A stretch of 40,489 nucleotides of DNA from a virus. Taxonomy: Duplodnaviria > Heunggongvirae > Uroviricota > Caudoviricetes. Positions 36,578 to 40,489 of this stretch are shown here, piece by piece. Position numbers and translations under genes: made by a program. How positions within the stretch are numbered: the stretch's first letter is position 1; the number at the start of each line of letters is the position of its first letter. The stretch lies in IMG/VR virus record IMGVR_UViG_2693429662_000008; one strand, given 5' to 3'. Under the pieces are notes generated by a model that was given only the letters and a program-made list of their open reading frames with translations, ran no database searches and was not told the DNA's origin.

Positions 36578-39500
36578 ATGAAATTTATGAACAGGACCAG
36601 TCCCTATTATTGTCGCCGCTCAGTACTTTCCTTATTGATATCTGCCTTGATATATGCCCCGCCCGGGATGGCTGCCTTCACTACTAATGTTATTGGTGTG
36701 GTAAACGATGAGACTGTAGATGGCAACCAAAAAGTGGATGAACGAGGTACAACAAATAACACTCATATTATCAACCATGGCCAGCAGAATGTTCATGGCG
36801 GGGTATCTAATGGAAGTCTTATTGAATCTGGTGGATATCAAGATATAGGAAGTCATAACAATTTTGTGGGGCAGGCTAATAATACAACCATTAACGGTGG
36901 CAGACAGTCAATTCATGACGGGGGTATTTCCACAGGTACGACAATCGAGAGTGGCAATCAGGACGTTTATAAAGGGGGTATCAGCAATGGAACGACAATT
37001 AAGGGCGGTGCTTCACGCGTAGAGGGAGGGAGTGCGAATGGAATACTCATTGATGGTGGTAGCCAGATAGTAAAAGTTCAAGGGCATGCTGATGGTACAA
37101 CGATAAATAAGTCTGGCTCTCAGGACGTAGTACAAGGAAGTCTGGCAACGAACACAACCATAAATGGTGGTCGACAGTATGTTGAACAGAGCACAGTAGA
37201 AACAACAACCATTAAAAATGGCGGTGAGCAAAGAGTATATGAGAGCCGTGCGCTGGACACGACGATTGAAGGCGGAACTCAGTCTCTGAATAGTAAGTCA
37301 ACGGCAAAAAATACGCATATCTATTCTGGTGGCACGCAAATTGTTGATAACACCAGCACCTCGGATGTTATTGAAGTTTATTCTGGTGGCGTGCTTGATG
37401 TTAGTGGTGGTACGGCAACAAATGTTACCCAGCACGATGGTGCAATTTTAAAAACTAACACTAACGGTACGACGGTGAGCGGTACGAATAGTGAAGGTGC
37501 ATTCTCCATCCACAATCACGTGGCAGACAATGTGTTGCTGGAAAACGGTGGTCATTTAGACATAAACGCATATGGTTCGGCAAACAAGACGATTATTAAA
37601 GATAAAGGAACAATGTCAGTTTTAACCAATGCTAAAGCTGATGCGACCCGAATAGATAATGGCGGGGTTATGGATGTTGCAGGAAACGCGACAAATACCA
37701 TAATTAATGGTGGCACACAGAATATTAATAATTATGGCATAGCCACAGGCACCAATATCAACAGCGGAACGCAAAATATCAAAAGCGGCGGGAAAGCTGA
37801 CACAACAATTATATCCTCCGGGAGCCGGCAGGTTGTTGAGAAAGATGGTACGGCAATTGGCAGCAATATTAGCGCCGGAGGCTCGCTGATTGTCTATACC
37901 GGCGGTATTGCACATGGGGTTAACCAGGAGACGGGCAGTGCTTTAGTTGCCAACACGGGTGCAGGGACTGATATCGAAGGATACAACAAGCTCTCTCACT
38001 TCACTATTACCGGAGGGGAGGCTAATTATGTTGTGCTGGAAAATACCGGCGAACTGACGGTAGTGGCTAAAACCTCGGCGAAAAATACTACCATTGATAC
38101 TGGCGGTAAGCTGATTGTCCAGAAGGAGGCTAAAACAGATAGCACCAGACTTAATAATGGCGGCGTTCTGGAGGTTCAGGACGGTGGTGAGGCTAAGCAT
38201 GTTGAGCAACAATCCGGCGGCGCATTAATTGCTTCCACGACCTCCGGAACACTTATCGAAGGAACCAACAGTTATGGTGATGCTTTCTACATCAGGAATT
38301 CAGAAGCTAAAAATGTAGTGCTGGAAAACGCTGGCTCATTAACAGTCGTCACTGGTTCCCGCGCAGTTGACACGATTATTAATGCCAACGGCAAAATGGA
38401 TGTTTATGGAAAAGATGTTGGCACTGTACTCAATAGTGCTGGCACCCAAACAATATATGCCAGTGCCACTTCTGATAAAGCAAATATCAAAGGTGGCAAG
38501 CAAACGGTATATGGTTTAGCCACTGAAGCAAATATCGAAAGTGGTGAACAAATTGTTGATGGTGGGTCAACAGAGAAAACACACATCAATGGTGGCACGC
38601 AAACCGTTCAGAATTATGGTAAGGCAATCAATACCGATATCGTCTCTGGCCTACAACAAATTATGGCAAACGGGACAGCGGAAGGTTCCATTATTAATGG
38701 GGGTTCACAGGTAGTTAATGAGGGCGGTCTGGCTGAAAACTCGGTGCTTAATGACGGCGGCACACTCGATGTGCGGGAGAAAGGCAGCGCAACGGGGATA
38801 CAGCAGAGTAGCCAGGGCGCTTTGGTTGCAACCACCAGGGCGACGCGGGTCACAGGAACACGCGCGGATGGCGTCGCGTTCAGCATCGAGCAGGGTGCGG
38901 CGAACAATATCCTGCTGGCAAATGGCGGCGTGTTAACCGTGGAGTCAGACACCTCTTCTGACAAAACACAGGTCAATATGGGCGGACGGGAGATCGTCAA
39001 AACAAAAGCCACTGCGACAGGCACGACGCTCACCGGCGGTGAACAAATTGTCGAGGGTGTGGCGAATGAGACAACAATTAACGACGGCGGAATACAAACA
39101 GTTTCAGCTAACGGAGAGGCAATAAAAACAAAGATCAATGAAGGCGGTACGCTGACAGTCAACGATAATGGCAAAGCGACAGATATCGTCCAGAACAGCG
39201 GTGCCGCTCTCCAGACGAGCACGGCTAACGGTATTGAAATCAGCGGTACTCACCAGTACGGTACTTTTTCCATTTCCGGCAATTTAGCGACCAATATGTT
39301 GCTGGAAAATGGCGGTAATTTATTGGTATTAGCAGGTACCGAAGCTCGCGACTCCACGGTTGGCAAGGGTGGGGCAATGCAAAACCTGGGTCAGGACTCC
39401 GCCACAAAGGTTAACTCTGGCGGGCAATATACCCTTGGGCGGTCAAAAGATGAGTTTCAGGCTCTGGCCCGGGCAGAAGATCTCCAGGTCGCTGGCGGTA

Positions 39501-40453
39501 CGGCAATCGTCTACGCAGGTACGCTGGCGGATGCATCGGTCAGTGGCGCGACAGGAAGCCTGTCGTTAATGACGCCACGGGATAATGTTACGCCAGTTAA
39601 ACTCGAAGGGGCGGTCCGGATTACCGATAGCGCGACATTGACTCTGGGAAATGGCGTCGATACCACGCTTGCCGACCTGACGGCTGCCAGCCGGGGCAGT
39701 GTCTGGCTTAACAGCAATAATTCCTGTGCAGGTACCAGCAACTGCGAATATAGAGTAAACAGTTTGCTACTCAACGACGGTGATGTTTATTTGTCAGCAC
39801 AAACAGCAGCGCCTGCCACAACTAACGGTATCTACAATACGCTGACAACCAATGAACTTTCCGGTAGCGGTAATTTCTACCTGCATACCAACGTTGCAGG
39901 CTCCCGGGGCGATCAACTGGTCGTCAACAACAACGCCACTGGTAATTTTAAAATCTTTGTTCAGGATACCGGCGTCAGCCCACAGTCTGACGACGCGATG
40001 ACGCTGGTGAAAACAGGGGGAGGGGATGCTTCGTTTACGCTGGGCAATACCGGCGGTTTCGTTGATCTTGGGACCTATGAGTATGTCCTGAAAAGTGACG
40101 GCAACAGCAACTGGAACCTGACCAATGATGTCAAACCCAACCCGGACCCCATCCCAAATCCAAAGCCAGACCCAAAACCCGATCCAAAGCCAGACCCAAA
40201 TCCAAAACCAGACCCTACTCCCGATCCAACGCCGACACCCGTTCCGGAGAAACGCATTACGCCTTCTACGGCAGCCGTACTCAATATGGCAGCAACATTA
40301 CCGTTGGTATTTGATGCTGAGCTAAACAGTATTCGCGAGCGGTTGAACATAATGAAAGCGAGTCCACACAACAATAATGTCTGGGGGGCGACGTATAACG
40401 TAACCGGCTCATTTAAACCGTCTGGTCTGTTTCCTCCGGCTCTACAAAAATAA
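36578..40453 (+). CDS. Autotransporter adhesin (AIDA-I / YpjA-like), passenger domain and linker; ORF ends at the start of the beta-domain
   Basis: Probable start MKFMNRTSPYYCRRSVLSLLISALIYAPPGMAA (autotransporter-type signal peptide) at 36578; the ORF track start at 36458 is upstream. Long passenger with repeated motifs of the form T.INGG.Q.V..GG.A..T.I, a Pro-rich linker, then the beta-domain helix (AELNSIRERLN...NVWGATY) and a stop about 30 codons later. Confidence 0.85.
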   Translation: MKFMNRTSPYYCRRSVLSLLISALIYAPPGMAAFTTNVIGVVNDETVDGNQKVDERGTTNNTHIINHGQQNVHGGVSNGSLIESGGYQDIGSHNNFVGQANNTTINGGRQSIHDGGISTGTTIESGNQDVYKGGISNGTTIKGGASRVEGGSANGILIDGGSQIVKVQGHADGTTINKSGSQDVVQGSLATNTTINGGRQYVEQSTVETTTIKNGGEQRVYESRALDTTIEGGTQSLNSKSTAKNTHIYSGGTQIVDNTSTSDVIEVYSGGVLDVSGGTATNVTQHDGAILKTNTNGTTVSGTNSEGAFSIHNHVADNVLLENGGHLDINAYGSANKTIIKDKGTMSVLTNAKADATRIDNGGVMDVAGNATNTIINGGTQNINNYGIATGTNINSGTQNIKSGGKADTTIISSGSRQVVEKDGTAIGSNISAGGSLIVYTGGIAHGVNQETGSALVANTGAGTDIEGYNKLSHFTITGGEANYVVLENTGELTVVAKTSAKNTTIDTGGKLIVQKEAKTDSTRLNNGGVLEVQDGGEAKHVEQQSGGALIASTTSGTLIEGTNSYGDAFYIRNSEAKNVVLENAGSLTVVTGSRAVDTIINANGKMDVYGKDVGTVLNSAGTQTIYASATSDKANIKGGKQTVYGLATEANIESGEQIVDGGSTEKTHINGGTQTVQNYGKAINTDIVSGLQQIMANGTAEGSIINGGSQVVNEGGLAENSVLNDGGTLDVREKGSATGIQQSSQGALVATTRATRVTGTRADGVAFSIEQGAANNILLANGGVLTVESDTSSDKTQVNMGGREIVKTKATATGTTLTGGEQIVEGVANETTINDGGIQTVSANGEAIKTKINEGGTLTVNDNGKATDIVQNSGAALQTSTANGIEISGTHQYGTFSISGNLATNMLLENGGNLLVLAGTEARDSTVGKGGAMQNLGQDSATKVNSGGQYTLGRSKDEFQALARAEDLQVAGGTAIVYAGTLADASVSGATGSLSLMTPRDNVTPVKLEGAVRITDSATLTLGNGVDTTLADLTAASRGSVWLNSNNSCAGTSNCEYRVNSLLLNDGDVYLSAQTAAPATTNGIYNTLTTNELSGSGNFYLHTNVAGSRGDQLVVNNNATGNFKIFVQDTGVSPQSDDAMTLVKTGGGDASFTLGNTGGFVDLGTYEYVLKSDGNSNWNLTNDVKPNPDPIPNPKPDPKPDPKPDPNPKPDPTPDPTPTPVPEKRITPSTAAVLNMAATLPLVFDAELNSIRERLNIMKASPHNNNVWGATYNVTGSFKPSGLFPPALQK
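40131..40245 (+). repeat. Tandem short repeats encoding a Pro-rich (PKPD/PNPD/PTPD) linker
   Basis: Repeated CCAAAGCCAGACCCAAAACCCGAT-like units encode PNPDPIPNPKPDPKPDPKPDPNPKPDPTPDPTPTPVP. Confidence 0.8.
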
Positions 40454-40489
40454 TGTCCATCATTTTTAATGGACACTATCGTATGAAAC

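Follow-up and report, generated by a model that had tools for sequence, protein, structure and literature searches.

The autotransporter adhesin gene ypjA/ehaD is very probably interrupted by simple transposition of an ISCro1-type IS66 element at the end of an Escherichia coli draft contig

YpjA of Escherichia coli K-12 (b2647; WP_010723187.1), a homologue of EhaD from enterohaemorrhagic E. coli O157:H7, is an AIDA-I-type type Va autotransporter adhesin. Type Va passengers that lack a covalently linked barrel are neither translocated across the outer membrane nor anchored there. The intact K-12 protein has 1526 residues, with the Autotransporter beta-domain (PF03797) at residues 1265-1504. Also involved here is the IS66 family of insertion sequences (ISs), elements defined by imperfect terminal inverted repeats beginning 5'-GTAA. 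ISCro1 was described in Citrobacter rodentium (PMC3072379), and a 2,824-bp copy lies upstream of afaA in E. coli sequence type (ST) 131 (PMC8764528). The DNA analysed in this study is a 40,489-bp stretch catalogued as viral (IMGVR_UViG_2693429662_000008), hereafter the window, which is the entire draft contig CYDN01000041.1 of assembly GCA_001284585.1. A long open reading frame (ORF) at its 3' end had been taken, from the letters alone (hereafter the sequence-only reading), for an autotransporter adhesin that terminates at the beginning of its barrel. We report that this ORF is ypjA/ehaD, in all likelihood interrupted by simple transposition of an IS66-family (ISCro1-type) element, and that it is an insertion pseudogene at a repeat-induced contig end.

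We compared the ORF with intact ypjA, as the sequence-only reading had proposed. Nucleotides (nt) 1-3813 of K-12 ypjA align to window 36587-40399 without a gap at 99.948% identity (2 mismatches in 3813 nt), and R273S is the sole amino-acid change across codons 1-1271. The annotated K-12 start (MNRTSPYY...) falls at 36587; the start previously placed at 36578 is indeed an in-frame ATG, three codons upstream of the K-12-equivalent position. Read by eye, the N-terminus MNRTSPYYCRRSVLSLLISALIYAPPGMAAF shows a basic N-region, a hydrophobic core and a small-residue cleavage motif, consistent with a putative Sec signal peptide. Searching the 1288-residue product against Pfam returned PF16168 (AIDA; E = 1.2e-149) in 11 stretches and PF03212 (Pertactin; E = 1.9e-45) at residues 1057-1179, and NCBIfam matched TIGR04415 repeats in the passenger. 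The Pro-rich linker KPNPDPIPNPKPDPKPDP... and the translocator-helix motif AELNSIRERLNIMKASPHNNNVWGATYN are both present, which bears out the earlier description of a passenger, a Pro-rich linker and AELNSIRERLN...NVWGATY. The window ORF and K-12 YpjA share the same order of AIDA repeats, pertactin-like domain and Pro-rich linker. The neighbourhood is also that of K-12, with DUF5507/DUF5508 genes and a recombinase remnant upstream of ypjA.

No match to PF03797 was found by Pfam in the 1288-residue product. When window 39890-40489 was searched by megablast against 5426 complete RefSeq E. coli genomes, ypjA (annotated as 'adhesin-like autotransporter YpjA/EhaD') matched at 100% identity over query positions 1-510 only, and did so in thousands of genomes. 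The identity to ypjA breaks off abruptly at window 40399, that is, after codon 1271: across this point the K-12 sequence is ...GGGGCGACGTATAAC-ACCCGTAATAATG and that of the window ...GGGGCGACGTATAAC-GTAACCGGCTCATTTAAACC. The sequence-only reading had left the cause between a nonsense mutation, a frameshift and an insertion. For a point mutation (nonsense or frameshift), after which the barrel would go on in a different frame, the stop codon is the only argument. Against it, K-12 continues ...CGTATAAC-ACCCGTAATAATG where the window has ...CGTATAAC-GTAACCGGCTC, and none of the 90 bases after 40399 (0/90) aligns to ypjA, all of them being IS66 sequence. The alignment leaves this explanation no place, and of the three proposals insertion stands.

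The foreign DNA begins at 40400 with the left terminal inverted repeat GTAACCGGCTCATTTAAACCGT, of which GTAACCGGCTC forms the beginning. Window 40400-40489 matches, at 100% identity, the first 90 positions (1-90) of a 2699-bp IS in the complete genome of E. coli STECUZB006 (NZ_CP171883.1; stretch L001). A 94-bp query (40396-40489) matched 5258 places in 1732 of the 5426 complete genomes, on chromosomes as well as plasmids and with up to 18 places per genome; among the matches listed, all fall under 'IS66-like element accessory protein TnpA'. In L001, the NCBI Prokaryotic Genome Annotation Pipeline (PGAP) annotates the complete gene set as tnpA, tnpB and 'IS66-like element ISCro1 family transposase'. 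The full TnpA (225 residues) matches NCBIfam NF038385 (IS66_access_TnpA) with 294.9 bits, the DDE transposase (tnpC product) matches NF033517 with 479.6 bits, and the Pfam domains TnpB_IS66 and DDE_Tnp_IS66 were found in two relatives of the window, L003 and L004. At its right end the element closes with ...ACGGTTCTGACGAGCCGCTTAC in L001 and ...GAGTCGCTTAC in L003. ISCro1-type elements and the element at hand are alike in the left 90 bp, the tnpA-tnpB-transposase order, the GTAA-starting repeats and the 8-bp duplication. They differ in length: the ST131 copy of ISCro1 measures 2,824 bp, the element here 2,699 bp from one target duplication to the other. The name ISCro1 is in our case the PGAP label.

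Because 40400-40489 is the left end of IS66, the autotransporter ORF owes its final 17 codons and its stop to the IS, which is read in frame here. The TAA at 40451-40453, followed by 36 bases to the window end, was confirmed in the six-frame ORF list and agrees with the sequence-only reading. The start that PGAP gives tnpA in L001 (7156) corresponds to window 40453, its ATG overlaps the ORF stop as TAATG, and the contig end cuts tnpA off after 12 codons. The ORF was previously judged to be truncated at the start of the barrel and roughly 240 residues short. The position is right, as the break falls seven residues into PF03797; however, the homology already ends at 40399 with a foreign tail behind it, and 255 residues rather than 240 are missing. 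Compared with intact YpjA, the product lacks residues 1272-1526, including PF03797, and carries the 17 IS-encoded residues in their place. The window ORF is therefore a ypjA allele by descent, and it does not belong to the type Va family functionally.

To see what lies past the IS, we turned to L003, a stretch of the 5.29-Mb contig of assembly GCA_040813315.1. It differs at 2 positions from the last 13,903 bases of the window and has the same P2-like prophage context. In L003, ypjA nt 1-3813 is followed by IS66 positions 1-365, a 1426-bp IS4-family element, IS66 positions 354-2699 and finally ypjA nt 3806-4581, the last of these 100% identical to K-12. The left junction reads ...GCGACGTATAAC|GTAACCGG... 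and the right junction ...GTCGCTTAC|CGTATAAC|ACCCGTAAT.... The 8-bp sequence CGTATAAC corresponds to ypjA nt 3806-3813 and occurs twice in L003 but once in K-12, and its left copy alone is visible in the window. At this locus an IS66-family element has transposed with an 8-bp duplication, YpjA is truncated at residue 1271 and PF03797 is lost. The downstream search for the barrel that the sequence-only reading called for was carried out in this relative; it recovered the barrel DNA as ypjA nt 3806-4581, and its reach is L003 rather than the window's own genome. The expectation that the barrel might run on in another frame just beyond the window proved wrong as it was meant, since the barrel-coding DNA of L003 is intact and lies ~4.1 kb away from the passenger, behind the IS. 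A search of L003 for an expressible barrel fragment gave only a mechanical 236-residue ORF from an internal ATG, which lacks both a signal peptide and the linker helix and was not called as a gene.

The IS4-family element is nested in the tnpA of IS66 at L003 14179-15604, is 1426 bp long with a 12-bp target duplication CCCCGGCGGCCC, and is also found in L004 and L005. With its tnpA interrupted in this way, the IS66 copy in ypjA of these relatives is probably immobile. The nested IS4 suggests that the IS66 copy has itself been disabled and that the ypjA allele is inherited and not recent.

We considered whether the IS66 copy might instead mark the breakpoint of an IS-mediated deletion or rearrangement, with the 3' part of ypjA deleted or relocated in this genome. 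The right side of the IS does lie outside the window, and IS copies, matching 40396-40489 at up to 18 places per genome, are substrates for recombination. Yet in L003, which has 2 differences in 13.9 kb and shares the prophage context, the insertion is clean: the 8-bp target is duplicated and the 3' segment of ypjA follows at 100% identity. We consider such a rearrangement improbable.

The course of events was very probably as follows. An IS66-family element inserted after ypjA codon 1271, in the orientation of ypjA, and duplicated the 8-bp CGTATAAC. Translation of ypjA now continues for 17 codons into the left end of the IS and ends at the TAA that overlaps the tnpA start. The protein has lost its 255 C-terminal residues, and with them the 12-stranded barrel in full and the greater part of the linker helix. 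The barrel-coding DNA would survive unaltered behind the IS, where the right end of IS66 would continue CGTATAACACCCGTAATAATG.... The truncated product could still be exported by Sec across the inner membrane but would not be displayed at the surface.

As the junction lies at most 90 bp from the contig end, which is the least reliable zone of draft assemblies, a chimeric join or mis-extension of an intact gene has to be weighed. An exact-protein look-up found the identical chimeric 1288-residue protein encoded by at least 11 contigs, which belong to one ENA metagenome and to several NCBI assemblies. The assembly error at 40440-40460 that the sequence-only reading had allowed for is contradicted by this recurrence of the same junction in independent assemblies, and the 5.29-Mb contig of L003 runs across the insertion from end to end, target duplication included. 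An artefact is thereby all but excluded. All but one of the six contigs shown terminate within IS66 or within the nested IS4: L008 at 52 bp into IS66, the window (L007) at 90 bp, L006 at 126 bp, L005 inside the nested IS4 and L004 inside the IS66 transposase gene. Short-read assemblers break at multicopy repeats. The window thus stops 90 bp into the IS because its short-read draft contig broke at such a repeat. The allele occurs in stretches that carry the P2-like prophage (L003, L007) and in others that lack it (L004-L006).

Several points count against simple transposition as the full account. The exact junction occurs in 0 of the 5426 complete genomes, and exact-pattern scans for the left and right junctions found no match in Joint Genome Institute (JGI) metagenome contigs or in GTDB species-representative genomes. 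The right junction is supported by one assembly, that of L003. In the window genome itself, the right IS end and the 3' part of ypjA are outside the window, and for this genome a detached intact barrel and a target duplication are predicted from the near-identical relative. Lastly, the loss of surface display would follow from general type Va autotransporter biology, and with it the status of the locus as a pseudogene, because a passenger without a covalently linked barrel cannot be translocated or anchored; the sequence-only reading argued likewise that the usual export route would be closed.

Since the junction is absent from the complete genomes and from the metagenome and species-representative scans, it is a lineage-specific allele, and one of an ordinary kind. 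The gene (ypjA/ehaD), the element (ISCro1-type IS66; PMC3072379, PMC8764528) and the mechanism are all already known, and a literature search returned no description of this ypjA allele. The features at the junction are collected in Table 1.

Table 1. Features at the ypjA-IS66 junction (window coordinates)
Feature	Position	Strand	Content or note	Basis
5' part of ypjA/ehaD, codons 1-1271	36587..40399	+	putative signal peptide; passenger with AIDA repeats; pertactin-like domain; Pro-rich linker; beta-domain region, residues 1-7	ungapped K-12 alignment, Pfam
Target site CGTATAAC	40392..40399	.	left copy of the 8-bp duplication	both IS sides in L003
First 90 bp of IS66-family element	40400..40489	+	PGAP: ISCro1 family	identity to STECUZB006 copy
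IS-encoded read-through tail	40400..40453	+	17 codons (VTGSFKPSGLFPPALQK) + TAA	translation
Start of IS66 tnpA	40453..40489	+	ATG 40453-40455; cut by contig end	PGAP tnpA in L001
7-bp inverted repeat TGTCCAT-N8-ATGGACA	40454..40475	.	IS-internal, over first tnpA codons	exact position search

The inverted repeat just after the stop had been noted in the sequence-only reading; it exists, but three bases upstream of the 40457-40478 given there, and inside the IS. When 40400-40489 is folded, the repeat appears as a hairpin, although the stability of this 90-nt fold relative to shuffles is modest (z = -2.29), and perfect inverted repeats of 7 bp with 4-12-nt loops occur 47 times in the window as a whole. 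We asked whether the repeat might terminate transcription of ypjA or regulate the gene and rejected this, as the repeat belongs to conserved IS sequence, begins one base into the tnpA ATG and has a commonplace 7-bp stem. It is part of the IS and unrelated to ypjA. As a separate observation on the element, the TAATG overlap together with the hairpin over the first tnpA codons (40451-40475) could, judging from the sequence, couple or block translation of tnpA from outside transcripts; the stop/start overlap is contingent on the reading frame at this insertion.

STECUZB006, the sole full-coverage match among the complete genomes, was examined as a candidate for the same junction and set aside, as its insertion site is different. 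The IS there is of the same type and orientation and also lies in the barrel-coding 3' end of ypjA; however, it follows ypjA nt 4405, 592 bp further downstream, which makes it an independent event, and it carries no nested IS4. This copy occupies L001 7103-9801 (2699 bp), has imperfect terminal repeats GTAACCGGCTC... / ...GAGCCGCTTAC and is flanked by the 8-bp target duplication GGTGAAAG. PGAP annotates the STECUZB006 ypjA as a pseudogene with its C-terminus missing. Two independent ISCro1-type insertions are therefore on record in the barrel-coding end of ypjA, at nt 3813 in the window lineage and at nt 4405 in STECUZB006, a coincidence that is at most mildly suggestive. It is conceivable, though we think it quite unlikely, that this end of the gene is a recurrent ISCro1-type target, or that a barrel-less, Sec-exported passenger keeps a periplasmic or released function. 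Recurrent targeting could reflect selection against a surface adhesin (as an antigen or phage receptor) with the rest of the locus kept.

Upstream of ypjA, in the ypjB/ypjC region, the DUF5507/DUF5508 gene is split at window 34302-35675 into ORFs of 160 and 263 residues. It is a single gene of 457 residues in the metagenomic relative L008 and a pseudogene in K-12 and STECUZB006. Most of the window is filled by a P2-like (Peduovirus-type) prophage at 1575-33541, with a direct repeat of 36 bp at its two ends (1605-1640 and 33506-33541). This repeat corresponds to the 3' portion of a CAT-anticodon tRNA at 1575-1650, probably ileY. The prophage genes include an integrase, a CI repressor, 186-type Fil/Dhr/CP76 and gpA, and its best phage-database matches are Yersinia and Escherichia P2-like phages with only ~77% identity over ~55% of the query. 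A 498-residue ORF on the minus strand (window 31798-33294) is probably prophage cargo, because the integrase of the prophage is on one side of it and the right att repeat on the other. It had no match in Pfam, PADLOC or NCBIfam and matched only PHROG 37220, a function-unknown family (E = 1.9e-46).

The finding has little significance beyond annotation. An ORF that ends abruptly beside a contig end usually points to a repeat-induced assembly break at an IS. For ypjA/ehaD, the lineage would be functionally negative, yet it would score as positive in presence/absence screens that use the 5' 3.8 kb of the gene, a point that matters for surveys of adhesin repertoires in which ypjA is counted (e.g. 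PMC12547504).

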